Source: a virus
Virus genome (UHGV): UHGV-0117634
Reading direction: 5' to 3' (one strand)
DNA length: 64,000 bases
Part shown: one piece after another, positions 3,434 through 27,212 of the stretch
Layout of the letters: each line of letters begins with the position of its first letter
Position numbering within the stretch: position 1 is the stretch's first letter
Notes under the pieces: model-generated
The model's input: only the letters and a program-made list of their open reading frames with translations
What the model was told of the DNA's origin: nothing
The model's database searches: none
Translations under genes and position numbers: made by a program

Positions 3434-3444
3434 CTATATTAACC

Positions 3445-11502: not shown

Positions 11503-12402
11503 TTATTCAATATTTACTACAGTCACTTGTGAGAAGTGTGAAAGTCCACGCCATTTAGCACTTCCTAATGAATCTGTAGTGTAGATATGGTCAATACCGT
11601 TGTCAAGAAGATTTTCAACACCTTTAGAGAAAATCCCATGAGTGACATATAGTTCTACATGTTCTGCACCAGCTTCACGAAGATACTTTGCAGCCTCAAT
11701 GAAGGTACGACCACCGTCACAGATATCATCCAGAATCATGACAGTCTTACCTGTTAAGTCTACATCATCAAGGATTCGCATACCAGTTATTTCACCAGTT
11801 TTTAGGTTGCGTACCTTAGCCATTGTGATATATGGCTTTTCAACATCCTTAGCAGCTTCTTCTGTCTTCTTAGCTGCACCTGCATCTGGAGCCACTAAGT
11901 AATCAATTCGTGGGTCACTTGCAAAGTGTGATGCAACGGCTTTTTGTGGAACATTATAGAAGCACTTGAACAAATTTTCTGCTACGTTGCTGTGAACATC
12001 CAGAGCACATACAGAATCAAATTCCATAGCATTTACCAGATTGGCAAACACTTTCAATGCTGCTGCATCTCCTTTAAACATGTGTCGGTCATATCTTGCA
12101 TTTGGTAAGAAACCAAATAACACTGACTTCATTGTTGTTTGTTGAGGTATAAGGTTGTCAATTGCTTCTTTAGCCAAAGCTAATGCAAATAAGGTGTCTT
12201 TGTCATAACCTTGTACCGTGAAGATTACGTTTTCAATTTTTCCAGCAGCATGTTTAGCAAAATCTACTAAGTCTTCTGAAAAGTTACCACCAATTTCCCC
12301 TGAAGGGAACTGAATAATGTTGAAGGTCTCTTGGTGTGAACCTTTTGAATTTGAATTAAGCAGAACTTGAATAGTAGTTTCCATAGTATTTCTCTCAGTC
12401 AA
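11503..12402 (-). CDS. ribose-phosphate pyrophosphokinase (PRPP synthetase)-family protein (candidate Adps)
   Basis: PRTase-type binding loop VMILDDICDGGRTF and overall Prs-like layout; immediately upstream of the NAMPT-family gene. Confidence 0.8.
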   Translation of the reverse strand: MTERNTMETTIQVLLNSNSKGSHQETFNIIQFPSGEIGGNFSEDLVDFAKHAAGKIENVIFTVQGYDKDTLFALALAKEAIDNLIPQQTTMKSVLFGFLPNARYDRHMFKGDAAALKVFANLVNAMEFDSVCALDVHSNVAENLFKCFYNVPQKAVASHFASDPRIDYLVAPDAGAAKKTEEAAKDVEKPYITMAKVRNLKTGEITGMRILDDVDLTGKTVMILDDICDGGRTFIEAAKYLREAGAEHVELYVTHGIFSKGVENLLDNGIDHIYTTDSLGSAKWRGLSHFSQVTVVNIE

Positions 12403-12421
12403 AAGTTACGTTTGTAAATTA

Positions 12422-12871
12422 TTATTCCCAAATAATTTTCTTTCTTTTTAATTTAATGATGTTCTTTTTACAATACTCAACTGCCTCATCCATTGTATCA
12501 AACATCATCTCACCAATAAAGTACTTAACATTTGGGTTTTGCTCTTGTATTATTTGGATTTCTGTAGTTTTTACTTGGTCTTTTACACCAGTAACCAGTC
12601 TTGCTAGTCGTGGTTCATTTTCCATAAATGGTTTGCTTAACTGGTTGATATAAAGAACTCCACCATTTTTGCTACCATGCTTGACAGTCACGAGAACCCC
12701 AACTTTACGCAACGCTGATAAGTAATACCTTGAATTAGCTATCGGCATTTTCTTAAGATAATCACAATTACTTCTTAGAGCTTTCACCGCTTCATTGGAA
12801 TCAAATTCCTTATCAGTCCCGAACTTTTCGTGTAGTATCTCAACAAGCGTTACATAAAATGAGCTAATCAT
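12422..12871 (-). CDS. hypothetical protein, tandem paralog B (149 aa)
   Basis: Same length as and about 45% identical to 12898..13347 (shared EIL..KFGT..FDSNEA...YL.ALR..GVL.TV and C-terminal YFI...MF.T..EAVE.CKK.IIK.KR.KIIWE). Confidence 0.6.
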   Translation of the reverse strand: MISSFYVTLVEILHEKFGTDKEFDSNEAVKALRSNCDYLKKMPIANSRYYLSALRKVGVLVTVKHGSKNGGVLYINQLSKPFMENEPRLARLVTGVKDQVKTTEIQIIQEQNPNVKYFIGEMMFDTMDEAVEYCKKNIIKLKRKKIIWE

Positions 12872-12897
12872 AACTTTGTCTCTTTAGCTAGTGTAAA

Positions 12898-13347
12898 TTA
12901 TTCCCAAATAATCTTTGCACGTTTAATCTTAATGATGTGTTTTTTGCAATGCTCAACAGCCTCTTCTAAGGTATTAAACATCGCACTTTCAATAAAGTAC
13001 CTTACGTCAGGGTCTGTGTCAACAATTTTGTTCTCATCTTTATTTTTAGGTTCTTCATGTGATTCATCCAATAATGGTGATAGCTGGATGTGCTTTTCCA
13101 TGAAGGATTTATTTAACTGGTTAATGCTCAGTCTACCTTTACTTTTTATCTGGCCTACAGTCATTAGTACACCAGTTTGTCGTAATGCTGTCAAGTAACC
13201 ACGAGCATTATTAATTGATTGACCTCTAATGTATAGGCTTTTCTTTCGAAGTACATCAATAGCCTCATTAGAATCAAATGTCCCCTCTGTTCCAAACTCT
13301 TTATACAAAATTTCTATTACATGTTTTTGTAAATTACAAAAAATCAT
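12898..13347 (-). CDS. hypothetical protein, tandem paralog A (149 aa)
   Basis: Paralog of 12422..12871; conserved GTAACTTTTGACTGAGAGAAA leader upstream. Confidence 0.6.
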   Translation of the reverse strand: MIFCNLQKHVIEILYKEFGTEGTFDSNEAIDVLRKKSLYIRGQSINNARGYLTALRQTGVLMTVGQIKSKGRLSINQLNKSFMEKHIQLSPLLDESHEEPKNKDENKIVDTDPDVRYFIESAMFNTLEEAVEHCKKHIIKIKRAKIIWE

Positions 13348-13358
13348 AATATTTTCTC

Positions 13359-13652
13359 TCAGTCAAAAGTTACAAATGTTACAGCCATAGCTGTTTTACA
13401 TTTCTTTGGGTCTACAGTGTGATAAATAACTAAACAGTTACCTGTTCCATCTGGTACTGGTTTTGTCCAAGTACGTTCAATATTTGGCTCTCCAAATTCT
13501 TTATAGAATCCGTTGGAGTAGTGGTCAATCATCTCAATAGCAAGTGCATCTGGGACGTGACCACGTATCATATACATCTCACTACCGTTTCCAGCTTCAC
13601 TAATAAGTTCTTTGATATCCCATTGTTCTCTAGACATGATAAGTTGCCTCAT
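13359..13652 (-). CDS. hypothetical protein (97 aa)
   Basis: ORF-track ORF. Confidence 0.4.
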   Translation of the reverse strand: MRQLIMSREQWDIKELISEAGNGSEMYMIRGHVPDALAIEMIDHYSNGFYKEFGEPNIERTWTKPVPDGTGNCLVIYHTVDPKKCKTAMAVTFVTFD

Positions 13653-14145
13653 AAACTTCCCTAAACTTCAACAAGAGAGATATTGCCAGAACTGCATAGC
13701 TCCTGTCAAGCATTGGTGGCATATTATTTTTAAGATATGCTTTCTGTTCTTCCCAAGTCATCTTAGGAGTCTCAGGAAGTTTCTCACCTTGCTTCTGATT
13801 ATCTTCTTGTGTCTGGATAAACCAGTTTGAGCAATGGTGCTCTCCACCTTTTGTCACAGGCTTATGGTGGCCTAATGTGAAAGCTTTCTTTCCAGAATAT
13901 CTACAAAGCTTATTAAGGGTTGCAATAGTGTTCTTGACAACGCAGTATTCATAGAGGTTGTCAATAGTGTAATGAGGGTAGTACTGGAACAAGGCACTAT
14001 CACGGAACTTACCACGATTCCAAAGCACCATGTGATTAGAATTTGAAGGGTCATACTTATGTGACTCGATGAACTCTTGACGCTCATCAAAATCAAGACG
14101 AAGAACAGACATTGCAGCAGCACGTTTCATATTTGAATGGTACAT
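13630..14145 (-). CDS. hypothetical protein with possible HNH-like nuclease motif
   Basis: LGHHKPVTKGGEHHCSNW resembles the HH..P..GG....N HNH core; weak. Confidence 0.35.
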   Translation of the reverse strand: MYHSNMKRAAAMSVLRLDFDERQEFIESHKYDPSNSNHMVLWNRGKFRDSALFQYYPHYTIDNLYEYCVVKNTIATLNKLCRYSGKKAFTLGHHKPVTKGGEHHCSNWFIQTQEDNQKQGEKLPETPKMTWEEQKAYLKNNMPPMLDRSYAVLAISLLLKFREVYEATYHV

Positions 14146-14164
14146 GATTTCTCCAAAATAAAAA

Positions 14165-14186
14165 AGGGAACCTTTTACAGTTCCCT
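14165..14186 (-). terminator. rho-independent terminator
   Basis: Plus AAAAAGGGAACCTTTTACAGTTCCCT; stem AGGGAAC/GTTCCCT, T-run on minus strand. Confidence 0.5.
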
Positions 14187-14198
14187 AATCATATACGT

Positions 14199-14510
14199 TT
14201 ACTGAGCTATTTTCAAGACTTTTAAGAAACCTCCCTCACCAATTGCATCATAAACGTTTTCAGTTGGCTTGATAAGGTTGTTCAAGCATACAATTTTCTT
14301 ACGCTTCTTGTCATAAGTAAGCTTCAGTTGTTTCAACTCTTTGTCATCTTCAGGGTGCTCGTTGTACATCTTCACAGCTTCTTTAAAGCTAATGTAGCCA
14401 CCACCTAAAGTAAGGAAACCTGTACCACAATAGTGGGAGTTGTGTTTATCAGCCATAAACTGGCACAGGATAGAAATCTGAATTTTACGAGTGTTATAAA
14501 TCTTTTCCAT
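14199..14510 (-). CDS. hypothetical protein (103 aa)
   Basis: ORF-track ORF; AAGGATTATTAAAATG leader. Confidence 0.45.
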   Translation of the reverse strand: MEKIYNTRKIQISILCQFMADKHNSHYCGTGFLTLGGGYISFKEAVKMYNEHPEDDKELKQLKLTYDKKRKKIVCLNNLIKPTENVYDAIGEGGFLKVLKIAQ

Positions 14511-14521
14511 TTTAATAATCC

Positions 14522-14779
14522 TTACTTGCTACGTTTGCGGTTGCGAGCTTTTTTAGCTGCACGTTTAATTGCTGCTGCACCAGTTTGGCGATGAGCTTGC
14601 TTCTTACCACCTTTACCACGTCCAACATGGATGTAAGGTTGCTGTTCAATCTGACTTGCAAGAACCTGTGCAACTGCTGAAGCATCTACACCAACTTGTT
14701 TACCAGTCATTGAAACGATAGCTGCTGCTTTCGCCAGAGCCGCTAAGAAACCTGCTTTCATGTTTGAAAAAATTCCCAT
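14522..14779 (-). CDS. small protein with Lys/Arg-rich C-terminal tail (85 aa)
   Basis: C-terminus KRAAKKARNRKRSK; leader AAAGAGAGATATTAAAATG identical to the rIIB leader. Confidence 0.45.
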   Translation of the reverse strand: MGIFSNMKAGFLAALAKAAAIVSMTGKQVGVDASAVAQVLASQIEQQPYIHVGRGKGGKKQAHRQTGAAAIKRAAKKARNRKRSK

Positions 14780-14794
14780 TTTAATATCTCTCTT

Positions 14795-15073
14795 TTAAAG
14801 TTTAATACAGAACTGGTCTAGTTCTTCTTTTTCTATGATAACCGTAACATTGTCATATGTTACATCTGTGAAAAGCATTTGTCCATCACCAAGCGTTGAT
14901 TTTTCATCAACTGTGAATGTAACCTGCTTAACAAGCGCAGCTAAAGCTGTTAAGCCACTTTCTCCAAACTTTTCATGAGTTTTCACCATCCACTCATCGA
15001 GTGAGTTAATGTTATAAGTCCACTTACCGGAGTAGCTACTCTGCTCTCCATTGACAGTCGCCTTGCCAGCCAT
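14795..15073 (-). CDS. hypothetical protein
   Basis: ORF-track ORF 14795..15151 trimmed to internal Met (MAGKATVNG) preceded by GGAGAAAAGAG RBS; overlaps nrdG 3' end. Confidence 0.35.
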   Translation of the reverse strand: MAGKATVNGEQSSYSGKWTYNINSLDEWMVKTHEKFGESGLTALAALVKQVTFTVDEKSTLGDGQMLFTDVTYDNVTVIIEKEELDQFCIKL

Positions 15074-15521
15074 ACTCTTTTCTCCACAGTATTTGATTGT
15101 CAGACCCACGATACGGTTTGTGTGTCGGTTTAGAAGCATCATACTTACCATCTACTACCACGTCAACATATTTCATCACTTCTAAGTGAATTTTTTCATG
15201 TAGCTGGTAACCTGTCCACAACCATATAGTTTTATCTGGATAGACAGTCTTAATCCGCTTACAGATATTTGTCACTTCCTGTACGTTTCGGTCATCAAGA
15301 GGTTCTCCACCTAATATAGAGAATCCACTGATAGCATCATCGTTCATTAGTTGCATAATGCCATAAAGGTTTGCATAAGTAAACTCCTTGCCAGCATTAA
15401 ACTTCCAAGACTCCCTGTTAAAGCATCCTTCACAGTGGTGTTTGCAGCCAGCTACAAAAAGACTAACACGAGCACCTTCACCGTTTGCTGTATCGAATTT
15501 TCGTATTTCCATGTAATTCAT
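15036..15521 (-). CDS. nrdG: anaerobic ribonucleotide reductase activating protein (radical SAM)
   Basis: CKHHCEGC radical-SAM cysteine motif; adjacent to nrdD. Confidence 0.8.
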   Translation of the reverse strand: MNYMEIRKFDTANGEGARVSLFVAGCKHHCEGCFNRESWKFNAGKEFTYANLYGIMQLMNDDAISGFSILGGEPLDDRNVQEVTNICKRIKTVYPDKTIWLWTGYQLHEKIHLEVMKYVDVVVDGKYDASKPTHKPYRGSDNQILWRKEYGWQGDCQWRAE

Positions 15522-15913
15522 TAAATCACCTCAACTTCAAACCTTACATGTTTTGTGACGTACTCTTCACAGTGTTCTTTAATAAATTCCTGAAGGAGTT
15601 CATCTTCCTGAGCACGAGTCATCAGAGCAACATACTTTGGATTCATCGTTTGTTCAATGCTGTAGAAGGATAGGTCACCAATCTCTGTGCCATATGAGTC
15701 TGACCATGTACCAGTTGCTACCAAAACTTTACCACATAGTGATGGAGGGATACTAATACCTTCTTCCTCAGATTCACCAATGACAGCTTCATCAATCATC
15801 AGTGTGCAAGTGAGGTAAAACTCTGAGTATTTTCTGTGAGTCTTCTCACAAGAACCGCACTCTAAAGCATAATCTTTAAGCCAATCTCTCTGAGCTTTAT
15901 TTAATTTAGTCAT
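15521..15913 (-). CDS. hypothetical protein (130 aa)
   Basis: ORF-track ORF between nrdD and nrdG. Confidence 0.45.
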   Translation of the reverse strand: MTKLNKAQRDWLKDYALECGSCEKTHRKYSEFYLTCTLMIDEAVIGESEEEGISIPPSLCGKVLVATGTWSDSYGTEIGDLSFYSIEQTMNPKYVALMTRAQEDELLQEFIKEHCEEYVTKHVRFEVEVI

Positions 15914-16007
15914 CTTTCTTTCCTTTCAATGTGTTGTATAAAAGACCTAACAAAAAGCCTAGTAGAACAGAACCTACTAAGGTAACTAATAAGAATGTCT
16001 TAATCAT
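15906..16007 (-). CDS. tiny hydrophobic peptide (~33 aa, not in ORF track)
   Basis: MIKTFLLVTLVGSVLLGFLLGLLYNTLKGKKDD; ATGA start/stop overlap with upstream gene and overlap with downstream ATG. Confidence 0.25.
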   Translation of the reverse strand: MIKTFLLVTLVGSVLLGFLLGLLYNTLKGKKDD

Positions 16008-16267
16008 TCGCCATACCACCATATAGTTTGGTTATTGTCACAAGTATATAGGTACTCTGTACCAATTTGAGGAACAACAATTGTCGTATTCCCTGAGATT
16101 ACTGTCATGTAGTACATGTATTCTCTACTTTGTGATGTTTGCTGACAATTGTTTGCATTCATCCAAATTCTTGTTTGATAAGTGTCATATATGAGTAATC
16201 CAACCATGATTGCTAATGCAATTCCAAGGAACCATAACCAAAATTTAGGCCAAAAATCGTAACTCAT
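16004..16267 (-). CDS. small membrane protein (87 aa)
   Basis: N-terminal hydrophobic helix (FWLWFLGIALAIMVGLLIY). Confidence 0.45.
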   Translation of the reverse strand: MSYDFWPKFWLWFLGIALAIMVGLLIYDTYQTRIWMNANNCQQTSQSREYMYYMTVISGNTTIVVPQIGTEYLYTCDNNQTIWWYGE

Positions 16268-16336
16268 ATTTTAATACTCTGCTCCAATAAAAAGGTGATG
16301 CAAGCCTATCAAGACCTACACCACCTTGTCAACTAC

Positions 16337-18478
16337 TTACATAGATTTTCTATCCTGAATCTCAGCAATTTTTGCATCGTTCATTCTGGAAGTGCCTTTA
16401 ATCTTAGTCCAGCCAAGATAACCACAAACACGGTTAATCACAGAGATATCGTGTGAGTTGCACTTAGTGCATAATTCAACATCTGCACTTGGACGGTGAC
16501 CACAATTTTCACAGATTGCTAAATCAAAGTTAACACCTTGATAGAAACCTTTACCCATACCTCTTGTCACACAAGCCCTGATAGCTTTATGGTTCTCTGG
16601 GTTAGCAATACGAACGTACTGGATATGACCACCATTACAAGAGTGGAAGAAAGGTTCTTCTAAGTCTTGCTTTTCAAACGGTGTAATGTCTGCACCAACA
16701 TTCATGTGGAAACTGTTTGTGAAGTATTCTTTATCAGAAACACCTTTAACAACTCCGAACATATTTCTAAACTGCTTCAATTGCGTACCACAAAGACTCT
16801 CAGCAGGTGTACCATAAAGTGCATACAGGAAGCCGTCTTCCTGCTTAAACTGCTCCAGCTTGCTATTCAGATAGCTTAAAACCTTGCTTGCAATATCACC
16901 ATCAGACTCATGCAATCTTCTACCTTGAGCAAGCACTGTTAATTCATCTAATGCAGTCACGCCAAAAGATGCTGTAAAAGACTTAACAGTATCCCAACCA
17001 ATCTTATCAGTTGGCTTCTTATGTCCTTTATACAATCCACCTTGTGTGAAAGCTAAAGGGTTAGAACTTGCTGGCATATTAGCAATCATCTCATATCGCT
17101 TCTTATGGAAGCTTCGAATCATTTCAAGGTATTTGTCAAGCTCTTTCCAGAAGTCTAAACCATTCTCTTCAGAGTATTTGTAAATCATCGGCAGATTAAG
17201 AGACACTGCACCGATGTTTGCTCTACCTGTGTAGAACTCTTTACCTTCCTCATCATAGTAAGGAGATAAGAAAGCCCTACAACCCATTGGAGAGATAACT
17301 GCACCTGAACGTTCAAAAGCTTCTGCAACAGAACCGTGACCAGACACACTTAAGAAGTCTGGATACATAGCTTTAGAGCAACACTCAATAGCTTTATCAT
17401 AAAGCTGCCCCTGCCAAGGGTCTAACATGTGTCTTGTTTCATCATAGATATAAACCAGTTTAGGGAACACAACAGGCTTCTTAGATTTACCTTGACCATT
17501 CATCCTAACATCTAGAATAGTCTTAGCAATCATAAATTGCAAACGGTTATCTCCACTAGCCATGTCTGGTTCAAGTAAACCAAATGTTAATGTTGTGAAT
17601 GCAAAGTCACCACGACTGCAAGGAACAGTGTTCAGTTTCATTTCCAGAGATTGGAATCCCTGAGTTAGTTCAATCTGAAGTTGCTCTTTAGCGTAGTGGT
17701 ATACTTCCTTGCTTGGAATATTGTATTGCTTTGCTTTTTCCAGATGATACTCAAAAGACTTCTTAGCATATGGCACAAGAACCTTGTCAATCTCTGGGAT
17801 AGTGAATCCACCAAACTGCTGTGCAGTTGCTGAGAGTACAACATCACCGATAACCTGTAAGGCTGATAGTACAGACTTAGGTTCACAGTATTCGATGCCG
17901 GACATTTCAAAACCACCTTCTAAGACACTCCCAATGTCAAATAAGCAGCAGTTAATACCACCGAAGATTAAGTCTCTTAAGTCATGGATATAAATGAATC
18001 CATCTTCAATAGCACTTGCTTCTTCTGGTGTCAAGTGATACTGCTTAAAGATTTCTTTTGTCAAATATCCACGGATGATTGAACCTTTTGTAGAGATTAA
18101 GCTGCTGTCAAAGTTAGCATTCTCACGGTCACCTAAGAAGAGTGTGTCTTTAGTTTTCTGGTAAAGTTCATCCCAATTCTGTGCAACCTCTTTACGATAG
18201 TTTCTGTAGGTTGAATATGACTCATAGATTTCATGGTTTACCTCTGCCAGAGTCCCTTCTACAATACTGTGAACATCATCTACAGAGATGAGCATAGCAT
18301 TCTGATTAGTTGCTCTGACAAGCAGTCTCATAAAGGCTGATTCAAGAGCATGGATAACTTCTAGTGGTAACTCTTTGTAGCCAACTCTATTAGCTGACTT
18401 GGTAACTGCTTCGACGATTTTATTTACGTTTGGCTTTTCCAGTGAACCGTCTTTCTTAATAATTTGTACTTTAACCAT
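16337..18478 (-). CDS. nrdD: anaerobic ribonucleoside-triphosphate reductase (class III)
   Basis: ATP-cone start (MVKVQIIKKDGSLEK), C-terminal glycyl-radical motif RVCGY and Cys-rich zinc site; start moved from 18568 to the Met with AGGAG RBS just downstream of a terminator. Confidence 0.85.
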   Translation of the reverse strand: MVKVQIIKKDGSLEKPNVNKIVEAVTKSANRVGYKELPLEVIHALESAFMRLLVRATNQNAMLISVDDVHSIVEGTLAEVNHEIYESYSTYRNYRKEVAQNWDELYQKTKDTLFLGDRENANFDSSLISTKGSIIRGYLTKEIFKQYHLTPEEASAIEDGFIYIHDLRDLIFGGINCCLFDIGSVLEGGFEMSGIEYCEPKSVLSALQVIGDVVLSATAQQFGGFTIPEIDKVLVPYAKKSFEYHLEKAKQYNIPSKEVYHYAKEQLQIELTQGFQSLEMKLNTVPCSRGDFAFTTLTFGLLEPDMASGDNRLQFMIAKTILDVRMNGQGKSKKPVVFPKLVYIYDETRHMLDPWQGQLYDKAIECCSKAMYPDFLSVSGHGSVAEAFERSGAVISPMGCRAFLSPYYDEEGKEFYTGRANIGAVSLNLPMIYKYSEENGLDFWKELDKYLEMIRSFHKKRYEMIANMPASSNPLAFTQGGLYKGHKKPTDKIGWDTVKSFTASFGVTALDELTVLAQGRRLHESDGDIASKVLSYLNSKLEQFKQEDGFLYALYGTPAESLCGTQLKQFRNMFGVVKGVSDKEYFTNSFHMNVGADITPFEKQDLEEPFFHSCNGGHIQYVRIANPENHKAIRACVTRGMGKGFYQGVNFDLAICENCGHRPSADVELCTKCNSHDISVINRVCGYLGWTKIKGTSRMNDAKIAEIQDRKSM

Positions 18479-18496
18479 TCTGACTCCTAATGCAAA

Positions 18497-18518
18497 AAAG
18501 GTCTCCGAAGAGACCCTT
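18497..18518 (-). terminator. rho-independent terminator upstream of nrdD
   Basis: Plus AAAAAAGGTCTCCGAAGAGACCCTT; stem GGTCTC/GAGACC, CGAA loop. Confidence 0.55.
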
Positions 18519-18527
18519 ATATTAATT

Positions 18528-18728
18528 CTACTTAGAAAACTTTTCAATAAGCTTTTTAAGCTTTCCACTCAAATCATGTTTGATATCTAATATCTCAAAG
18601 ATAACCCATACTAGCATAGCTCCAAAGAGAGCACCTTGTTTTAAATCAGTAAACAGGCTAGTAACCATGAATGCCAGAGCAATCATCGGAGCATCTTCAA
18701 CAAAACCATCCCATAAACGTTTAAGCAT
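18528..18728 (-). CDS. small membrane protein (66 aa, two predicted TM helices)
   Basis: Hydrophobic segments MIALAFMVTSLF and ALFGAMLVWVIF; GAGGTG RBS. Confidence 0.45.
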   Translation of the reverse strand: MLKRLWDGFVEDAPMIALAFMVTSLFTDLKQGALFGAMLVWVIFEILDIKHDLSGKLKKLIEKFSK

Positions 18729-18963
18729 TATTCACCTCTGCCATAAAGTTCTGTAGTGTTCCAACAGGTTTCATTTCATTGTCTTCAACCTTCATAATGA
18801 AAGGCATCTGACGAACAGGTATCTTTGCAATATCCATCAGGTCACTTAGCTCATAATCTTTCCCAAGCATTCTTACAACATGGTCTAAGCCACGAGCCTG
18901 AGCAAAGTTTTTAGCAGTCACACACTGTGGGCATCCATCTTTTGAGTAAATTACATAAGTCAT
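18721..18963 (-). CDS. nrdH: glutaredoxin-like protein NrdH
   Basis: CPQC redox motif near N-terminus, ~80 aa, next to nrdB. Confidence 0.7.
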   Translation of the reverse strand: MTYVIYSKDGCPQCVTAKNFAQARGLDHVVRMLGKDYELSDLMDIAKIPVRQMPFIMKVEDNEMKPVGTLQNFMAEVNNA

Positions 18964-20036
18964 TAAGGAACCTCTAAAAATCCTGAATTTAAATCATCAA
19001 CAACAGTATTCAAAAGATACGCACCATTTTGTTGTTCTTGGTTAGCGTTTTGCTCTTTATCAATTTCCATCTTCTTAATCATATATTTCAAAGGTGGTTC
19101 TTTAGGAGCTACGAAGTCTCTTGGAATACCAAACATATCATACAATGGAGCAGCATTGTAGTAAACCCATTCATGAAGAAGTTTTGTATTCAAGCCTACA
19201 ACAGCACGTCCTTCAGAGAAGATATAATAAGACCATTTCTCTTCACTTTCAACTACTTCATCCAGAATTACTTTAATCTCTGGGAGTACTTGACGGAAAG
19301 CTTCTTGCCACTCTTCATCTTTCAAAGTTTCTTTTAATGCTTCGATATCAATCTTTGTGTGAATGATTTCGTCAAGCATAATTTTCTGTACTGCTTGTGC
19401 AATCCCTTGGAATTTATCTTGTGCATCAAGTGCAAAGGTACATGCAAAGGATGCCATGAAGGAAATACCCTCAAGTGCTGTTACTGCAAAGAGACCTTTC
19501 AAGATTACTTTGTGGAAGTGTAAAGGGTCTTTCTCCATTAACTCTTGACGAACATAGTTTAAACGATAGTTAATACCTTCGTCAAGTAATTCTGCCAGTG
19601 CTCTGTTTACAGTCTTCAATCTGTCCTGAACAGCAGTGTTCTGGTTAATCTCATCAAGGATTGTTTCAGGGTTCTTGATACACTGACGAACAATCTCTGA
19701 ATAAGTTAGTGCATGAAGGTTCTCAATTTCTGATTGCTTCATGATAGCAGTTGCATAGATATCATCAGAGATGAATGGTGCAAATGCAAAAGCTAAACTC
19801 TTAGCAACCTGTGTATCTGCTTCCCATTGCCATTTCAGAATCTCAAGCATTACACCAGACATTGACTGAGGGACACTCTCAAAGTCTAAGCGTGATTGCT
19901 CAAATGGAAATTCCTCTTCAGACCAGTCTTGAGCTTTCTGCTGCTTATACAGTTCAAAGATTTTTGGATAGTGTTTATTAAGTGAATCAAAAGTCTTACG
20001 TTCTTCACCTAAGAAGATTGGATGTGAATTAATCAT
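18963..20036 (-). CDS. nrdB: ribonucleotide reductase class I small subunit
   Basis: Ferritin-like di-iron ligand pattern (e.g. LDEIIH), 357 aa, downstream of nrdA. Confidence 0.8.
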   Translation of the reverse strand: MINSHPIFLGEERKTFDSLNKHYPKIFELYKQQKAQDWSEEEFPFEQSRLDFESVPQSMSGVMLEILKWQWEADTQVAKSLAFAFAPFISDDIYATAIMKQSEIENLHALTYSEIVRQCIKNPETILDEINQNTAVQDRLKTVNRALAELLDEGINYRLNYVRQELMEKDPLHFHKVILKGLFAVTALEGISFMASFACTFALDAQDKFQGIAQAVQKIMLDEIIHTKIDIEALKETLKDEEWQEAFRQVLPEIKVILDEVVESEEKWSYYIFSEGRAVVGLNTKLLHEWVYYNAAPLYDMFGIPRDFVAPKEPPLKYMIKKMEIDKEQNANQEQQNGAYLLNTVVDDLNSGFLEVP

Positions 20037-20308
20037 TCTGGTAATTTTCCTGTTCTGAACATATCTCTCGCAGCTTGTCTTGTAAGGACTAGCCAGTTTT
20101 CCATATTAAATAACTCAGGTGCTCTAACATATTCTTTGCCGCCATTAAAGCAGTCAATATATCTCACACATTTCTTCCAAGAATCATCATCCTGCTTTAC
20201 CATTACCTCTGTACTGGCAACATAGTAAAGTGTATTTCTTGGCTTATACATCAGATAAACAGATTTACCTTCTGCTTTATTTCTTGCGGATTCTATTAAG
20301 TCTATCAT
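20033..20308 (-). CDS. hypothetical protein inserted between nrdA and nrdB (~91 aa)
   Basis: ORF-track ORF trimmed to internal Met with GGAGAG RBS and TAACTTT leader; longer version would overlap nrdA. Confidence 0.4.
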   Translation of the reverse strand: MIDLIESARNKAEGKSVYLMYKPRNTLYYVASTEVMVKQDDDSWKKCVRYIDCFNGGKEYVRAPELFNMENWLVLTRQAARDMFRTGKLPE

Positions 20309-20363
20309 AGACTCTCCAAAGTTAATTTTAGAGGGTCTTTTACGACCCTCATAGTTATTGAAA

Positions 20364-22598
20364 CTAAACACCACAACCTTCGCAGTAAGCATCTTGAAGT
20401 GCTGATTTACCAACACCAATACGACTGTTTAGGTAGTACATGGTTTTCATACCTACAGAGTTTGCATAAATCATGTACTTCAAAGCTTGCTCTAATGATA
20501 CCTTCTTAGACTTCGAGTAGTCAACATAGAAATCTGAAGAGATAGCTTGACCAGTGAATTTTTGAACAATTGCATAGCAATCAATCATATCAAATGTGTC
20601 AATATCCCAAGCAATTTCATAGACATACTTCAACTCTTCGTAGTCTGGTACGATAAACAGTACGTTACCAGTGGCAGACTTTTTAGTTAAAATAAAGTCA
20701 CGGATTGGGTACAAGCCATTTGTCGTATTAGTTGCTAGTGAAGAACTCTCGTTAGGCATGTAAGCTTCTAATACAGAGTTTCGGATTCCACCATTTTCTT
20801 TGATACGTTGTGCTAAGTCATCCCAATCATATCTTAGTTTTGCATCATGTTTTTCATCAATCTTCTTGTTAGCTGTCTTAGTTGGAACCCAACCATCAGG
20901 GTACTTAGTAAACTTCATGTACTCAGGCACACCACGCTCTTTAGACAGTCTCAGTGAAGCCTCATGCAGATAGAATGAGTGCATCTCTGCAAGTTCATGT
21001 AGCTTCGTTTTACCAGCCCTTGAAGAGTAGTTCACGTAGTTCTTTGCAAGGTAATGAGCCACATTTGTAAGGCCAATCCCAACAGAGCGACGTTTCTGTA
21101 CATGGTTACGCATCGACGGATACGGGTAGTCCATGAGGTCAATAACGGAGTCAACCATTGCAAGAGCATAATAAGCAACGTCAGCGTATTCATCTTCTGA
21201 AATTCTCCCTGCAACCAAACTAGCTAGGAAGCAAAGAGCTACTTCACCATCTTCTTTAGCAGCATTGTAGCTGTAAAGGTCTGTCTCTTTCTCAAATCCA
21301 TAAACTGGCAATATAATTTCCATGCACAGGTTAGACATTTTCAAAGGTTCTTTGAACGGCGTATGTGTGTTTGCGTTGTTCGTAAAGAACGGATAAACAC
21401 GACCAGTTGCATAACGTTGCTGGATAAACAACTTAGCAATCTCACGAGCTTTTACTCGCTTATGTTTAACACCAGTGTGAACCGCATGTCCAACAGCCAT
21501 TGCAAACTCATCTGCACTTGCTGTGTAGAACATATCATACAATTTTGGAGCGTCCTTGTAAGAGAATAGTAGCCAATCTGTATCGTACTGCACACATTGC
21601 CAGAAGTAATCGTTTGTTCCAAATGAGTAATCCATCTCATTAATACGCTTTGAAGTAACCGTTGTAGGGTGCTTCAGACGAAGTAAATCTTCAATCTGAG
21701 GGTCAAGAGCAGTGTAGAAGTTGTTCGCTGAACCACCACGACTCTTCTGCTTATTAGCCTCTACAGCAGCACGTACCAGCTTATAATAAGGGAGTTTTCC
21801 CATATGCTCAATAGTGTTTTGTCGGATACCGTCACCAATTGTTCTGGTCTCCATCAGCATACCAATACCTGCTTGCTTAGTGGTCATGTCATAAGCTACT
21901 TTTGTAGCAATGCCAAGAGATTCAGCAGTATCATTTGCTTTAATTAGGCAGCATGAAGCGTAGCCAGATTTTGTAGCTCTCAGACCATTCAGATACGGTG
22001 TAGGAGCATTAATCTTCAGGTCAGATAGATATGTGTAGAGCTTAATAACATCATCTAAACGCCGCTGTTTAGGCTGTCTTTCAAAGGCTTTCATAGCCAT
22101 ACCCATGAACATAAACTGTGGAGACTCAAACAGCTTACCACTTTTAATGTCACGGATTCCATACTTATCACGGAACTGCTTCAGCACTGCATACCCATAA
22201 GAGATATCTTTCGAATGTACGATGTGACCTTGTAAGTAGTCAATCTCTTCAGGTGTGTAATCCATGTGTTCCCAAAGTCCCATCTGCTCCATCTTCATCA
22301 CAAATGGAAGTAACTGAGGAACCTTTGTAAATCCACCAAAAGCTTCTTTGTAGATAATGCCAAGAAGTAGTCTCCCAGCCATATCAGAGTACTCTTGAGT
22401 TTGTTTATCAATACAAACGTCAATCATAGCTTGGTGCATTTCTTTTGTTGTACAACCTTCATAGACACGCTTCATAGCTTCCATTACAACTTCTGACCAG
22501 ATAATTCCTCTCTTGTCAGCCCATGAAGCCCATTTATTTAAACGTTCTGGTTCGAATGGTACGATTGTACCGTCTGATTTGCGAATAGTAGTAATCAT
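20364..22598 (-). CDS. nrdA: ribonucleotide reductase class I large subunit
   Basis: N-terminal ATP-cone (MITTIRKSDGTIVPFEPERL), 744 aa, C-terminal Cys pair (CEGCGV). Confidence 0.85.
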   Translation of the reverse strand: MITTIRKSDGTIVPFEPERLNKWASWADKRGIIWSEVVMEAMKRVYEGCTTKEMHQAMIDVCIDKQTQEYSDMAGRLLLGIIYKEAFGGFTKVPQLLPFVMKMEQMGLWEHMDYTPEEIDYLQGHIVHSKDISYGYAVLKQFRDKYGIRDIKSGKLFESPQFMFMGMAMKAFERQPKQRRLDDVIKLYTYLSDLKINAPTPYLNGLRATKSGYASCCLIKANDTAESLGIATKVAYDMTTKQAGIGMLMETRTIGDGIRQNTIEHMGKLPYYKLVRAAVEANKQKSRGGSANNFYTALDPQIEDLLRLKHPTTVTSKRINEMDYSFGTNDYFWQCVQYDTDWLLFSYKDAPKLYDMFYTASADEFAMAVGHAVHTGVKHKRVKAREIAKLFIQQRYATGRVYPFFTNNANTHTPFKEPLKMSNLCMEIILPVYGFEKETDLYSYNAAKEDGEVALCFLASLVAGRISEDEYADVAYYALAMVDSVIDLMDYPYPSMRNHVQKRRSVGIGLTNVAHYLAKNYVNYSSRAGKTKLHELAEMHSFYLHEASLRLSKERGVPEYMKFTKYPDGWVPTKTANKKIDEKHDAKLRYDWDDLAQRIKENGGIRNSVLEAYMPNESSSLATNTTNGLYPIRDFILTKKSATGNVLFIVPDYEELKYVYEIAWDIDTFDMIDCYAIVQKFTGQAISSDFYVDYSKSKKVSLEQALKYMIYANSVGMKTMYYLNSRIGVGKSALQDAYCEGCGV

Positions 22599-22610
22599 TA
22601 TATTAAATCC

Positions 22611-22634
22611 TACAGGTGAAAAAGGGTCTCCGAA
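22611..22634 (-). terminator. rho-independent terminator upstream of nrdA
   Basis: Plus AAAAGGGTCTCCGAAGAGACCCCTT; stem GGGTCTC/GAGACCC, CGAA loop, T-run on minus. Confidence 0.6.
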
Positions 22635-22649
22635 GAGACCCCTTAGAGA

Positions 22650-22985
22650 TTAAATGCTAAAAATCTTTTTACTTTCCCAGAGTTCAATGAACTTCTGTGA
22701 CACTTTTGTTAGTGAACCTTTAGACATTGTATTCATATACCAGTAACGTTTACCTTCATCGAATGCCATGTCAAGTTTCTCACTAATATCTTCTTCAAGT
22801 CTTGCAATTGAAAAGTTACCACGTACTTTGCAGACAACTCGTCCAAATTTGATATCGCTGCGGCCTTTGCAATCTTCAGTGTACATTACAAAGTCACCAT
22901 GATGTAATGTCTCACCAAACTTATCATTGCCTAGTTCTTCACCAGCTTTGATTTCTTCTTTAGTTAACTTTTTAATTTTAGACAT
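22650..22985 (-). CDS. hypothetical protein (111 aa)
   Basis: ORF-track ORF. Confidence 0.4.
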   Translation of the reverse strand: MSKIKKLTKEEIKAGEELGNDKFGETLHHGDFVMYTEDCKGRSDIKFGRVVCKVRGNFSIARLEEDISEKLDMAFDEGKRYWYMNTMSKGSLTKVSQKFIELWESKKIFSI

Positions 22986-23304
22986 GGTATCTATCCAAGT
23001 TTCGTTTCAAGTAAATCCACTGGTCATCTGTGCGCTCTACACCCATGAACAGGGGGGCTACAACAACTTTACCAAAAGTATTTCTGTGCTGGCAAATCTC
23101 GTAAGAGTACGGTTTATCAATATTTAAGCCATACTTATACAACACTGCTGCTAATACTTGTTCATTATCCAGAATCGTTTCTGGCTTCTCTCCGTACTTG
23201 TCTAACAGTGAATCATTCATAAACACTGTCATAGAGAGGTTGTAGTTGGAGAAGTGGCTTTTTGCCACCACTTCTTCACCTTTATTAATGTTCTGTGAAT
23301 CCAT
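22978..23304 (-). CDS. hypothetical protein (108 aa)
   Basis: ORF-track ORF. Confidence 0.4.
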   Translation of the reverse strand: MDSQNINKGEEVVAKSHFSNYNLSMTVFMNDSLLDKYGEKPETILDNEQVLAAVLYKYGLNIDKPYSYEICQHRNTFGKVVVAPLFMGVERTDDQWIYLKRNLDRYHV

Positions 23305-24040
23305 TATAACCGACTCCTTTCAACCACTGCTTGAGGTTGATTGCATCATAATTCAATTTCGGATATGAGGTTACATGGAACTTCTCACCATCATAGTACA
23401 CAATATCCGCAAGCCATAATCCATTCTCACGGCAGAAATCTTTATCTGCTTTTGAAGAGATTGGTTCAACTTTAGAAAAGTTTTTAATGCCAAGACTACC
23501 AAGACTTCCAATCAGTCCTTGGCAGATAACGCATGTGTCAGATGTTACCACAAATAATTCTTTTGCGTCAACTTCTGCAACAAAACTTTCAAGTTGAACT
23601 TTTGGAAGATTAGACTGTTTCATAACCTTACCATCAGACTTGCGAATAATTGCAAACCACTCTTTGCCTTCGATGATTGATTGGCGCAGGTAGCATTCAT
23701 CACCAGTACGTTTCTCAATATCAAACATTCGCTGTACAGCTTCTTGATAGTCATCTGTGTATTTGAGGTTGTTGTTTTCACAAACAGCCTTGATAGCACC
23801 ATCATGGTCATGCTGTGTTAGGAAAATTAAACCGTCAAGTACATACTGCAAATCAGCTTGAGCATCAAGAGTTTCAATGGGGTCTTTGGCTTCTACTGCT
23901 GCGACTAACTCTCTAGCTTCTTCAAGCATGCACAGAGATTGACTTTTCAGTGATTCCCAATACTCTGTGCTGTATGGCTCTTTTGGGTTATTGCCACAAC
24001 GTAGATTCCAATTTCTTACGGATTCTCTGGAATTAAACAT
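23285..24040 (-). CDS. hypothetical protein; N-terminal region weakly MazG-like (all-alpha NTP pyrophosphohydrolase)
   Basis: EEARELV...ETLDAQADLQYVLDG fits the ExxE...ExxD spacing of MazG/HisE-type pyrophosphatases; tentative. Confidence 0.3.
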   Translation of the reverse strand: MFNSRESVRNWNLRCGNNPKEPYSTEYWESLKSQSLCMLEEARELVAAVEAKDPIETLDAQADLQYVLDGLIFLTQHDHDGAIKAVCENNNLKYTDDYQEAVQRMFDIEKRTGDECYLRQSIIEGKEWFAIIRKSDGKVMKQSNLPKVQLESFVAEVDAKELFVVTSDTCVICQGLIGSLGSLGIKNFSKVEPISSKADKDFCRENGLWLADIVYYDGEKFHVTSYPKLNYDAINLKQWLKGVGYNGFTEH

Positions 24041-24270
24041 TAAGCCTCCTTATCTTCAAACAACTTTTGTTGAGACTCAATATATTCCATTCGTTCTTTG
24101 AGTTCAACACGTTTGCTTAACAGATGTTGAATTTGTGATTCCAGAGCATCCATCTCAGCTTCTGTAGCTGACTTAGCTTTACTGATAGTTTCCTTCAGTG
24201 CTGCTACGCCACTCTGGATTTTAGAAACATGGTCATTTTTGATTTTATTAAACATTTTAAACTCTCTCAT
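24040..24270 (-). CDS. small coiled-coil protein (76 aa)
   Basis: Heptad-like charged sequence. Confidence 0.4.
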   Translation of the reverse strand: MREFKMFNKIKNDHVSKIQSGVAALKETISKAKSATEAEMDALESQIQHLLSKRVELKERMEYIESQQKLFEDKEA

Positions 24271-24757
24271 TAAGTTTCATGATTTTAGTGATTCTCTTCT
24301 CAGCTTCATCATAAGTCTCTTTTGTAAGAAACTTGATTGCTGCAATGTTTGCATTGTAGAAGAGTCGAAGCTTAGAGTCAATCCTTTTTGTCATGACGTC
24401 AAACTTATGCTGTAGGTTAGCTTCGCCATAAACTAAGCCACCTCGCGTATAGTAAGTCTGGATGATGTAGAAGTCAAACTCTTTTTCACCAAAAGATTCA
24501 ATATCCTTCTTAATGTATTCAGAAGATGTTTGATAAGTCATCCAATCACTTTCTTTTGTCACGACTTTACGTCTGGTCTTTCCAGCAACCTTTCTCTTAG
24601 TGACATTATTAAATTGTTTCTTTCCAATATAATATTGCCCAGTTTTCTTACAGTATACTAAATAGACAAAACCAAAATAGTTAGCGGGGTCAATTTCCCC
24701 GCACAGTGAAATCCAATGTCCATAAACAGGGCAATTTCCAAATCCTTTAATCTTCAT
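24257..24757 (-). CDS. GIY-YIG domain protein (candidate homing endonuclease)
   Basis: FGFVYLVYCKKTGQYYIGKK matches the GIY-(x10)-YIG signature; basic linker follows. Confidence 0.45.
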   Translation of the reverse strand: MKIKGFGNCPVYGHWISLCGEIDPANYFGFVYLVYCKKTGQYYIGKKQFNNVTKRKVAGKTRRKVVTKESDWMTYQTSSEYIKKDIESFGEKEFDFYIIQTYYTRGGLVYGEANLQHKFDVMTKRIDSKLRLFYNANIAAIKFLTKETYDEAEKRITKIMKLNERV

Positions 24758-25814
24758 TCATAACTGGCTCCCAATTGTATTTTTTAAACGTAAAATCATC
24801 TTTAGGATTTCGTTCTTGATAAGCAATCCAGAAGTGCTGCTCCATTAGTTCTAGTGGAGTTCTTGTCACAATCTGACCATCCCACGATTCATAAGTATAT
24901 GACTCTTTCTTAGCATAAAGTTCATAGATTGCGTCTAAGCACTCTTTGTAGGTAGTTTTACCTTCCAGTGCATTCATCACTGCAACCTTACCAGCACCTT
25001 TTAAACCGAAGTAGTTATCTGCATTATCACCTGCTACAGCTTGATAGCAGAGGAATTTAAAACCTACTCCAACTGTCTTCTTAGCTTTCGGTTTAGATTT
25101 GATAGGGCAATCCCAAATCTCACCAACGTTATTATCTGCAATGAAAATTAATGGAGCTTTCTCATAAGTCATATCAATACAGTAAGTTCCTTCAGCTTGA
25201 CGAAGGTCTTTATCAATACTCATCAGAGCAGCTTTTTTACCCATCTTCTCAGCTTTTGCAATAACGATAGAGTCTGCTTCGAAGCCCCCCTTTAGGAGCT
25301 TAAACTCTGGTCGTGACAGAAGATACTCACGACAAGCAACTAGGTGTGTAGGTGTTACAGCTTCTTTTCTGTTACCTTGGTATTGGTGTTCAAGACCTTT
25401 GATATCCTTGTGTTTGTGAACACCTTTCTCAGTAAGGTAACCCATCCATTTGCGTTCTTTACCAACGACTTTCAACCACTCCTGAAGAACTTGCTGTGTA
25501 GCCATAATTGCTTCAGCTTCACTCTTAGCCTCCTTCCAAGTCTGTCTTTCCCATTCATCTTCATCAAAGTCAAGTCCTAACTCTTCAGTTAAAACTCTTT
25601 GGTCAGACAGCCATTGTGCTGCCAGTTTTGCACTATCAAAAGCGTCGGATTCTTCAGCAGTGATTTTATTCACATACTTGTACTTTGCTTTTTCAACTAC
25701 ACAAGCACCTTTGTAAGCAATGCTATCAGAGTCAATAAAGACGTGTGTAACGCTCTCTGGGAGCTTTGTTAAGGTGTATTGTTCCATTGTACTCTCCATA
25801 CGAAAAAGCCCCAT
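24747..25814 (-). CDS. 5'-3' exonuclease, T7 gp6-like
   Basis: Segments ALMSIDKDL, GDNADNYFGLKGAG, EIWDC align with T7 gene 6 exonuclease as recalled. Confidence 0.6.
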   Translation of the reverse strand: MGLFRMESTMEQYTLTKLPESVTHVFIDSDSIAYKGACVVEKAKYKYVNKITAEESDAFDSAKLAAQWLSDQRVLTEELGLDFDEDEWERQTWKEAKSEAEAIMATQQVLQEWLKVVGKERKWMGYLTEKGVHKHKDIKGLEHQYQGNRKEAVTPTHLVACREYLLSRPEFKLLKGGFEADSIVIAKAEKMGKKAALMSIDKDLRQAEGTYCIDMTYEKAPLIFIADNNVGEIWDCPIKSKPKAKKTVGVGFKFLCYQAVAGDNADNYFGLKGAGKVAVMNALEGKTTYKECLDAIYELYAKKESYTYESWDGQIVTRTPLELMEQHFWIAYQERNPKDDFTFKKYNWEPVMNED

Positions 25815-25831
25815 ACGTCTGTACAGGGCTT
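25804..25831 (-). terminator. terminator-like hairpin after SSB-like gene
   Basis: Plus AAAAGCCCCATACGTCTGTACAGGGCTTT; stem with longer loop, T-run on minus strand. Confidence 0.4.
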
Positions 25832-25849
25832 TGTAGTAGTTACTGACTA

Positions 25850-26710
25850 TTACTCGTCGTCAGTTTCGAAATCATCTTCGTCATCATCATCTGGGTTTGG
25901 CAGGTCGTCGTCATCGTCATCACCACCTTTACCTTCATCACCAGAATCTTTTGCATCTTCTTCAGTGATTTCGCCGTTGTCTTCAACACCTGCAAGACCA
26001 AGCATTGCCAGTTCATCTTCATCCAGTTCAGTCTCAGTAGCACCACCAGTACCACCAGTGTAAGGAACCAGAGTATCAATGATAAATTGTTCCTGAATTG
26101 GCTTGGTCAGAACGTTACCTTCAAATGTGTAGAAGTGAGTCGCCAGAATCACACTACCAAATGAGCCGTTACCAACTGCAATATCTGGATGAATTACATC
26201 GTAAGTCTTATCATCATCGTGCTTATCAGATTTTGCTGCCTTGATTTTCTTCATAGGCTGCTTAACTGCAACACGCTTACCGTTGATTTCTTCAACCAGC
26301 ATTACAGGGAAACTCTGTTTTGCTGACCACACAGCACCGTCTTTATATGCTGCTGAACGGCTAACCTTCAGGATGTGATAGGTGTCAGCTTCAAACGGAG
26401 GCTCACAACCAAACTTCTCTTCGAAGTCATCTGCATCAACAGCCTCTGTAGTAACTTTATCCCAACCTTCAGGACTCTTTTTAGACTTGGTGAACTCTTT
26501 AAAGAGCTTGTTACCATCTTTTGCCAGAATTGAAACGCTGTAGTTACAATCTTTGCCCGGAAAATGCTTATCCACAGATTTACCCTTTTGAGGACGTGGA
26601 ATAGTGTTCAGGTAATAGAACCAAACATCTTTCAGCAGGTAACGAAGAGTCTCACGTTCTTGACCATTGTACTTCTCTACCGGAGCTTTCATTTTAACAC
26701 CTTTAGACAT
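25850..26710 (-). CDS. putative ssDNA-binding protein with acidic C-terminal tail (T7 gp2.5-like architecture)
   Basis: ~40-residue Asp/Glu-rich tail (...DDDDDDLPNPDDDDEDDFETDDE) and position within the T7-like replication module; body not aligned. Confidence 0.45.
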   Translation of the reverse strand: MSKGVKMKAPVEKYNGQERETLRYLLKDVWFYYLNTIPRPQKGKSVDKHFPGKDCNYSVSILAKDGNKLFKEFTKSKKSPEGWDKVTTEAVDADDFEEKFGCEPPFEADTYHILKVSRSAAYKDGAVWSAKQSFPVMLVEEINGKRVAVKQPMKKIKAAKSDKHDDDKTYDVIHPDIAVGNGSFGSVILATHFYTFEGNVLTKPIQEQFIIDTLVPYTGGTGGATETELDEDELAMLGLAGVEDNGEITEEDAKDSGDEGKGGDDDDDDLPNPDDDDEDDFETDDE

Positions 26711-26934: not shown

Positions 26935-27212
26935 GAATCTCTCCGATATATTTCATATTCAAAATGTTTATTTGTCAAGGTAAACATGTAAACTGTGGAC
27001 AAATTATCAATTGCTAATGCAAACATCTCAACATTGTCTTTTGATATATGTTCAAACTTTACTTCATGTCCCTTGTTGATGAGTACTTTACCGAACTGTT
27101 CTATCTTAGTCAAGCACTCATTTACAAATTTTTCTCTACTTTTTTCTGAATAGAAGGGTGTAAAACACTCCTTCAGATAGCTATCAATCAGTTTCGAACG
27201 GACAGTCATCAT
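26931..27212 (-). CDS. hypothetical protein (93 aa)
   Basis: ORF-track ORF overlapping the 3' end of the primase-helicase gene. Confidence 0.4.
   Translation of the reverse strand: MMTVRSKLIDSYLKECFTPFYSEKSREKFVNECLTKIEQFGKVLINKGHEVKFEHISKDNVEMFALAIDNLSTVYMFTLTNKHFEYEIYRRDS

Follow-up and report, generated by a model that had tools for sequence, protein, structure and literature searches.

The 64,000-nucleotide (nt) viral sequence UHGV-0117634, called the window here at its full length, carries two small minus-strand genes, a GIY-YIG candidate at 24257-24757 (166 amino acids, aa) and an HNH-like candidate at 13630-14145 (171 aa). An original prediction, made from the DNA letters, had flagged both as candidate free-standing homing endonuclease genes, together with a small insert between nrdA and nrdB. 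We found that the two flagged genes are best read as fixed, vertically inherited, non-mobile nuclease genes of the Felix O1-like lineage, a reading to which we assign a probability of about 0.78; possibly they are domesticated nucleases of DNA metabolism. Their nuclease domains withstood analysis (GIY-YIG certain, HNH probable), while their supposed mobility did not, both genes being fixed in about 300 relatives. Overall this is an ordinary finding, in which nuclease genes conserved among phages had been given the label of mobile elements. Public genomes already include the GIY-YIG gene as an annotated feature, phage Sf13 with a product 100% identical to the one encoded here, and only its interpretation is new. 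A nuclease signature in a phage nucleotide-metabolism block is insufficient for a homing endonuclease call.

The window represents a Mooglevirus-like member of the Ounavirinae (Felix O1 group). Megablast of positions 13000-25900 matched 262 phage records, with Mooglevirus phages of Shigella and Citrobacter as best matches (ESh19, SFPB, Sf13 and Mordin; 92-96% identity) and Felixounavirus, Suspvirus and other Ounavirinae making up the remainder. We retrieved the region from eight relatives (Sf13, Mordin, Henu12, SUSP1, wV8, S19cd, phiEa21-4 and Zyzzx) out of five lineages (Mooglevirus, Suspvirus, Felixounavirus, Kolesnikvirus and an unclassified Hafnia phage) and compared it by tblastn with every open reading frame (ORF) of the window. 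Both flagged genes lie at the same position in Sf13, Henu12, Mordin, SUSP1, wV8, phiEa21-4 and Zyzzx. The neighbouring 5'-3' exonuclease gene, present in 302 phage records, served as the denominator for all counts. The GIY-YIG gene was found in 298 records at a minimum of 60% identity, plus Pectobacterium phages near 52%. The HNH-like gene occurs in equal numbers in every host group except for four fewer Salmonella phages, and is missing or replaced in about five. Presence/absence polymorphism among relatives, which the original prediction had itself proposed as a check, was not what we observed: the genes sit at the same site and are recorded as often as the exonuclease that flanks them.

Amino-acid identity of the GIY-YIG protein parallels that of the exonuclease over the eight relatives (100, 95, 87, 62, 98, 94, 63 and 87% versus 100, 95, 88, 53, 99, 92, 59 and 88%). 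The ratio of non-synonymous to synonymous substitution rates (dN/dS; Nei-Gojobori, window versus Mordin, SUSP1 and wV8) was 0.04-0.05 for the GIY-YIG gene and 0.07-0.12 for the HNH-like gene; the exonuclease gave 0.01-0.06 and nrdA 0.04-0.05. Both flagged genes are under strong purifying selection and evolve at the pace of core enzymes. No local dip in identity and no co-conversion signature surrounded either gene in comparison with Sf13 or Mordin, and no gene-less relative with an intact site was found for either. Because they are near-universal, syntenic and constrained, and because the GIY-YIG protein lacks a DNA-binding half, we conclude that the flagged genes are most likely not currently mobile homing endonucleases. 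It is very unlikely that they are active free-standing homing endonucleases that cut gene-less sites and spread by double-strand-break repair. Both proteins do combine nuclease folds with intact catalytic residues; however, some 300 relatives show no presence/absence polymorphism, synteny is kept over deep divergence and dN/dS is as low as in core enzymes. The distribution largely refutes such homing and, apart from terminal helices of the 171-aa protein that could bind DNA, neither gene shows any of the testable features that define a selfish homing endonuclease gene.

The product of 24257-24757 certainly contains, as judged from its sequence, a GIY-YIG nuclease domain of the Seg type. The reported signature is borne out on the minus strand by a match to Pfam PF19835 SegE_GIY-YIG far beyond chance (E 9.3e-28, 97.4 bits versus a cut-off of 25), which covers profile positions 11-123 of 123, and by a full-length match to PHROG 447 (E 7e-48). 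Using hhalign, the family aligned with the N-terminal catalytic domain of T4 SegE (probability 84%, E 8e-6). In an alignment of Ounavirinae proteins with T4 SegE and SegD, a homologue from a cyanophage and the Seg-like protein of Aeromonas phage 65 (298 aa), eight residues of the 166-aa protein were invariant (Y32, Y43, I44, G45, Y75, S78, E112 and N135), including the active-site residues Tyr32, Tyr43, Glu112 and Asn135, and the GIY-like 'GFVY' and the 'YYIG' motifs were kept across the alignments with SegE and SegD. The T4 proteins belong to the same catalytic-domain family (SegE residues 2-118 aligned; Y, Y-I-G, Y..S, E and N positions in common), relative to which the 166-aa protein is extended at its N terminus by a 'YGHW' segment and contains a basic insertion of 19 residues. 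It terminates about 30 residues past the catalytic Asn and has no C-terminal extension, whereas SegE and SegD (205-223 aa) and the 298-aa relative continue for more than 100 further residues of DNA-binding sequence. Since this C-terminal region of true Seg endonucleases is missing, the protein is without the half that confers site specificity. Its membership in the Seg clade of known T4 homing endonucleases would fit homing, as would the annotation of the Aeromonas phage 65 relative, whose gene adjoins nrdA, as a homing endonuclease; the missing DNA-binding domain speaks against it. T4 seg genes are moreover patchy, whereas the GIY-YIG gene of the window is universal, syntenic and strongly constrained.

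Public names for the gene vary between 'GIY-YIG homing endonuclease', which several GenBank records use and which would favour homing, 'NAD synthetase' and 'HNH endonuclease' in GenBank and RefSeq. With the HNH-like gene listed as 'hypothetical protein', public naming of the two genes is inconsistent; both behave here as core genes. We take the PHROG 447 label 'NAD synthetase' as an annotation artefact, because Pfam detects no NAD-synthetase domain. Several hundred records of T4-like cyanophages contain one copy each of a homologue consisting of the domain only (about 150 aa, T4-like gene cluster 213); its routine naming as 'NAD synthetase' looks like a propagated mis-annotation. The homologue of Synechococcus phage S-SM1 (3947-4408 of the retrieved locus) lies about 2 kb downstream of nrdA-nrdB.

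For the product of 13630-14145, the profile hidden Markov model check that had been suggested gave a different outcome: the 166-aa protein has its Pfam match, whereas the 171-aa protein itself has none in Pfam and only sub-threshold HNH matches elsewhere. The weaker HNH-like motif noted in this gene is nevertheless real, as a conserved motif and a confident beta-beta-alpha model attest. The family shares the motif GH[HW]xPxxxGGxHxxxNWxIQxxxxN, in which H93, G100, G101 and N107 are invariant and N116 nearly so (at least 90%). In an AlphaFold (AF2) model with a predicted local distance difference test score (pLDDT) of 95.4, the motif sits on a beta-beta-alpha unit of strands 89-93 and 108-112 and helix 113-119, all with a pLDDT of at least 95. 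The model also shows distinctive helical decorations at the N and C termini, which could bind DNA. Foldseek against the PDB returned only HNH folds at ranks 1-25 (Cas9 HNH, Gme HNH 4h9d, ScoMcrA), each with an E-value of about 1-5; in the viral library the matches beyond the own family were HNH endonucleases, with E 0.03 for that of Aeh1. Weak profile matches were obtained with PHROG HNH families (2e-5 and 4e-4) and the IscB HNH region (6e-4, far below cut-off), and 3 of 16 family members matched Pfam HNH PF01844 (best E 0.0085). Among PDB sequences, the family profile matched the HNH protein 4h9d at a non-significant E of 0.73, and hhalign against T4 MobE gave no significant match, though the expected motifs were paired. 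Like the HNH domains of Cas9, IscB and Gme, although no match to them is significant, the 171-aa protein is built around a beta-beta-alpha-metal core with His, Asn and Asn; it differs from them in lacking the zinc-binding Cys4, in its own helical decorations and in belonging to a tiny phage-restricted family. Taken together, the protein probably adopts an HNH nuclease fold (H-N-N type, beta-beta-alpha-metal), in which by analogy His93 would act as the general base and Asn107 and Asn116 would complete the motif.

An exhaustive HMMER search of 1.84 billion representative proteins found 17 clusters of this family, nearly all of about 170 aa. The family is small and phage-only (PHROG 3500) and is annotated as 'hypothetical protein' everywhere. 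Its HNH assignment appears to be absent from Pfam, PHROGs and the GenBank records inspected, and is a modest addition to a known superfamily. Word-indexed homologue searches with the flagged proteins returned close relatives only, and PDB sequence searches with both gave nothing but spurious, repeat-driven matches to protein A.

Could one or both proteins be non-cleaving, with the nuclease fold exapted for DNA binding or regulation? We consider this highly improbable. On inspection of the sequence, the GIY-YIG protein is without the Arg that follows YIG in I-TevI/EndoII-type enzymes, and its C-terminal third is poorly modelled; yet every residue common to the active T4 SegE and SegD is invariant in it. 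In the 171-aa protein, Asn replaces the last His, and zinc-binding cysteines are absent. H-N-N variants are, however, active in known enzymes such as I-HmuI, and His93, Asn107 and the GG turn are invariant even though the family has diverged to about 23-26% identity.

The genes between about 9.6 and 31 kb of the window lie on the minus strand. In coding order, the region comprises:

27184-29175, minus strand: primase/helicase
24747-25814, minus strand: 5'-3' exonuclease (FEN/RNase H-like; PHROG 107 exonuclease, E 6e-64; annotated as exodeoxyribonuclease in relatives)
24257-24757, minus strand: GIY-YIG candidate (Pfam PF19835, PHROG 447)
23285-24040, minus strand: MazG
20364-22598, minus strand: nrdA
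20033-20308, minus strand: small ORF between nrdA and nrdB (mechanical ORF 20033-20419; PHROG 2652)
18963-20036, minus strand: nrdB
18721-18963, minus strand: glutaredoxin
16337-18568, minus strand: nrdD
15036-15521, minus strand: nrdG
14199-14510, minus strand: DUF7390 gene, 103 aa
14165-14186, minus strand: terminator-like hairpin separating the DUF7390 and HNH-like genes (from a scan; Mordin has an annotated terminator at this place)
13630-14145, minus strand: HNH-like candidate (PHROG 3500)
12422-13347, minus strand: two paralogous 149-aa genes (PHROG 29478)
11503-12402, minus strand: prs
9641-11458, minus strand: nadV

The last 11 bp of the exonuclease gene overlap the start codon region of the GIY-YIG ORF, which also shares 14 bp with the gene that follows and is predicted to be translationally coupled to the exonuclease gene within a block of nucleotide-metabolism genes. 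The description of both flagged genes as free-standing therefore fails for this one, which overlaps both its neighbours, and suits the HNH-like gene, which comes after the terminator-like hairpin at 14165-14186. That ribonucleotide reductase (RNR) regions are classic hot spots for homing endonucleases, with T4 mobE between nrdA and nrdB, would favour homing; translational coupling with neighbours argues against it. Rfam detected no group I intron and no other RNA family in a scan of 9-30 kb.

Inside the GIY-YIG ORF, about 55 nt past its start, lies a hairpin (GCGGGG-AAATTGA-CCCCGC, 24684-24702, minus strand) with a T-rich tail, marked as terminator-like. Mooglevirus, Suspvirus and Felixounavirus retain it, with one compensatory pair change in wV8 and S19cd (GTGGGG...CCCCAC), whereas Zyzzx and phiEa21-4 do not. 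Downstream of the exonuclease gene it may serve as an attenuator, or it may be due to chance.

Genuine homing endonucleases do exist in the retrieved relatives. The premise that such phages harbour free-standing homing endonucleases is correct for their HNH+AP2 genes, which the window does not contain. Felix O1 has been reported to possess six HNH homing-endonuclease-like copies (five by the count of the Mordin authors), and Mordin one (PMC3185647, PMC4611695). In the relatives we found HNH+AP2 proteins of 163-178 aa and one MobE-like protein of 187 aa, and tblastn of these four real homing endonucleases against the whole 64-kb window detected no homologue. Their positions, and the corresponding site of the window, are:

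SUSP1, between nadV and prs: HNH+AP2 gene
SUSP1, beside nrdD: MobE-like 187-aa gene
wV8 and Henu12, between the exonuclease and GIY-YIG genes: HNH+AP2 gene
Window, 24752-24779, minus strand: unoccupied HNH+AP2 insertion site, junction between 24771 and 24772

Alignment revealed a clean 491-bp insertion in Henu12 and wV8 between ...TACAATTG and GGAGCC... (occupied loci at 14125-14661 of the Henu12 and 3090-3614 of the wV8 retrieved sequence), which rewrites the last codons of the exonuclease. Several other Felixounavirus records have an HNH+AP2 gene there according to the feature names under the matches; at the same junction of exonuclease and GIY-YIG genes, other Felixounaviruses have an annotated second allele (53-56% identical). 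Relatives of the wV8-type protein occur in 762 phage records of many unrelated groups, with the same allele in only about 27. Henu12 is about 93% identical to the window overall, but this value falls to 72% in the 130 nt upstream of its insert, which match Felixounavirus S19cd at 91%. This stretch has the hallmarks of a one-sided co-conversion tract from a Felixounavirus-like donor, and the window evidently holds the empty allele of a real HNH+AP2 homing endonuclease site. It thus offers a clean unoccupied target for such an enzyme.

The HNH+AP2 enzymes (wV8 gp114, Henu12 gp36, SUSP1 agp076) share the genomic region of the flagged genes, one of them at the exonuclease/GIY-YIG junction. They are patchy, with precise empty sites, as expected of mobile endonucleases, are common to T5-like and other unrelated phages, and include an insertion with a co-conversion tract. 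The flagged genes are unlike them in this respect, and the absence of a co-conversion signature at either gene is a further argument against homing.

The only replacement that we observed points in the same direction. In five Felixounaviruses (S19cd, SEP1, SP2, SP4 (SHa-2019) and GEP101), the HNH-like gene has given way to one for an N6-adenine DNA methyltransferase, which shares about 75% identity with the enzyme of Salmonella siphoviruses (S100/S102 group). In S19cd (14163-15077 of the retrieved locus), a 35-codon remnant of the HNH-like gene is left, and tblastn of this methyltransferase against the whole 64-kb window gave no match. The swap is rare and leaves no clean empty site, contrary to what homing would produce, and we regard it as a replacement rather than a homing polymorphism.

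We then come to what the two proteins might do for the phage. As a conserved member of its lineage, the HNH-like protein is likely a second small resident nuclease. The GIY-YIG protein would be a metal-dependent DNA endonuclease, either of low intrinsic sequence specificity or structure-specific, and its nicks or breaks would be enlarged by the adjacent exonuclease. Such activity could serve the breakdown of the host chromosome for nucleotide salvage, or the processing of replication or recombination intermediates. The GIY-YIG and exonuclease genes stand in an operon-like run with those for MazG, NrdAB, glutaredoxin, NrdDG, Prs and NadV. Pointers towards such a role are the domain-only homologues of cyanophages, the position of T4 denA beside nrdB, and phapecoctavirus ESCO5, where a gene of the 171-aa family adjoins a UvrD-type helicase and nrdD/nrdG; genes of this type thus occur near anaerobic RNR genes in two phage subfamilies. 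T4 EndoII (DenA) serves as a working functional parallel, a small GIY-YIG-only protein in a nucleotide-metabolism block that starts host DNA breakdown and whose gene adjoins nrdB. It differs in having the classical YIG...R motif, whereas the 166-aa protein is Seg-type and has no detectable sequence relationship to it. By this analogy a role in host-DNA degradation is tentatively suggested. The ancestor of the 166-aa protein may have been a Seg-type homing endonuclease, since deprived of its DNA-binding domain and domesticated.

More speculatively, the 166-aa protein might exemplify a widespread and unrecognised class of domesticated Seg-type GIY-YIG nucleases that act as core DNA-metabolism enzymes, with the 171-aa HNH family as a second domesticated nuclease; we hold this to be doubtful. 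If the protein is indeed a domesticated nuclease, common to marine cyanophages and to phages of the Felix O1 type, this would be one modest case of a selfish-element enzyme recruited to housekeeping. It would also make the protein a candidate for the degradation of host DNA in phages that serve in the biocontrol of Salmonella and E. coli.

Several points weigh against fixed, non-mobile nucleases with a household role. The structure model of the 166-aa protein reached a pLDDT of 70, with values below 50 for residues 106-147 and the C-terminal third, and its only meaningful Foldseek match, the catalytic domain of I-TevI (1mk0, 1ln0), had a target-normalised template modelling (TM) score of 0.51-0.53 at a non-significant E of 0.5-2.4. 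The protein is without sequence similarity to T4 EndoII, so that the parallel extends only to function and gene position: by hhalign the GIY-YIG family had no significant match to T4 DenA (probability 0.6%) or to I-TevI, and BLASTP of all ORFs of the region against T4 Seg, Mob, DenA and nrd-adjacent proteins found none. The HNH call combines a motif, a model and many sub-threshold matches, of which no single one is significant. The literature searched on Felix O1-like phages yielded genome descriptions that count HNH genes, and no functional, biochemical or expression data on either protein. Felix O1-type DNA is not known to be modified, so that a low-specificity nuclease would have no evident means of sparing phage DNA. 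It is also possible that a homing endonuclease was fixed long ago and is kept because it still wins mixed infections.

A related proposal is that both proteins are resident weapons against co-infecting phages (marker exclusion) or host defence elements, with specific foreign targets and possibly partner-supplied specificity. The Seg and Mob proteins of T4 have been reported to exclude the markers of related phages, and the universal retention of both genes, with purifying selection on them, is consistent with some benefit to the phage. Their surroundings form a recombination hot spot (the HNH+AP2 site and, as described below, an allele swap at nrdA-nrdB and an accessory cassette), and in five relatives the HNH-like gene is swapped for a DNA methyltransferase, a typical conflict gene. 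However, conflict genes are usually fast-evolving and patchy while the flagged genes are slow and universal, no specificity domain or obvious partner was identified, and PADLOC found no defence-family match for the flagged proteins. We therefore consider this proposal unlikely.

The third element of the original prediction, the insert between nrdA and nrdB, is indeed an ORF, and most likely a small minus-strand gene at 20033-20308 (91 aa) with GGAG seven nt before its ATG, a stop that overlaps the nrdB start and a conserved hairpin at 20331-20350 preceding it. Its proposed identity as a homing endonuclease was contradicted: the ORF is near-universal (294 phage records), and Pfam, PHROGs, NCBIfam and PADLOC gave no nuclease-domain match, only PHROG 2652 of unknown function. 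T4 MobE occupies the same intergenic position, where T4 also has nrdB.1; MobE, however, is an HNH enzyme, whereas the 91-aa ORF has no nuclease signature and no similarity to MobE or nrdB.1. The window allele is found at 95% identity or more in 6 of the 294 records and at less than 60% in the other 288. Though the gene is near-universal, its allele in the window is thus rare and divergent, one of two deeply divergent alleles in the subfamily. It lies in the following segment:

~19850-20950 (~1.1 kb): recombinant patch spanning the small ORF together with the 3' end of nrdA and the 5' end of nrdB, shared with Shigella phage ESh21, a more distant relative elsewhere

When bins of 50 nt are compared, identity of the patch to ESh21 is mostly 98-100%, down to 92-94% at 20350-20499 just past the nrdA stop, with flanks at 86%. 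Sf13 and Mordin, by comparison, are 92-95% identical to the window in the flanks and 50-68% in the ORF part. We interpret the nrdA-nrdB region as a recombinational allele swap of a conserved small gene, which is neither an insertion nor a nuclease.

An element of the region that does look mobile lies between a 97-aa ORF (13359-13652) and prs:

12410-13373, minus strand: 964-bp cassette (12389-13373 including both repeats), with paralogs at 12422-12871 and 12898-13347

Its tandem paralogs of 149 aa each (PHROG 29478, unknown function) are 47% identical. Two identical copies of a 21-bp sequence in direct orientation, GTAACTTTTGACTGAGAGAAA, bound the cassette (12389-12409 and 13353-13373), of which relatives without the cassette have a single near-identical copy (one mismatch in Sf13). 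Present in Mordin and not in Sf13, Henu12 and SUSP1, it occurs in only 16 phage records, always as a pair and scattered over Mooglevirus and Felixounavirus. This is the true presence/absence polymorphism here, an accessory or mobile-looking element.

The 103-aa gene at 14199-14510 is named 'putative HNH homing endonuclease' in Felix O1, wV8, Sf13 and Henu12. We rejected this candidate, which matches Pfam DUF7390 only and in which no HNH motif was seen. The DUF7390 gene adjoins the HNH-like gene in most Ounavirinae, in swapped order in Hafnia phage Zyzzx. The two are fused as a 259-aa protein in a rare metagenomic contig, and a 261-aa protein of VpaE1_ev78 may be a similar fusion. We also considered the pair as a split endonuclease; in phiEa21-4 and ESCO5, DUF7390 is not beside the HNH-like gene.

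Elsewhere in the window, a 26-bp repeat resembling a 'start-associated sequence', CCAACAATCCTAAACTGGAGAATCTA, which has been reported for phage Mordin (PMC4611695), is present as one exact copy at 444-469 on the minus strand, where none would be expected by chance.

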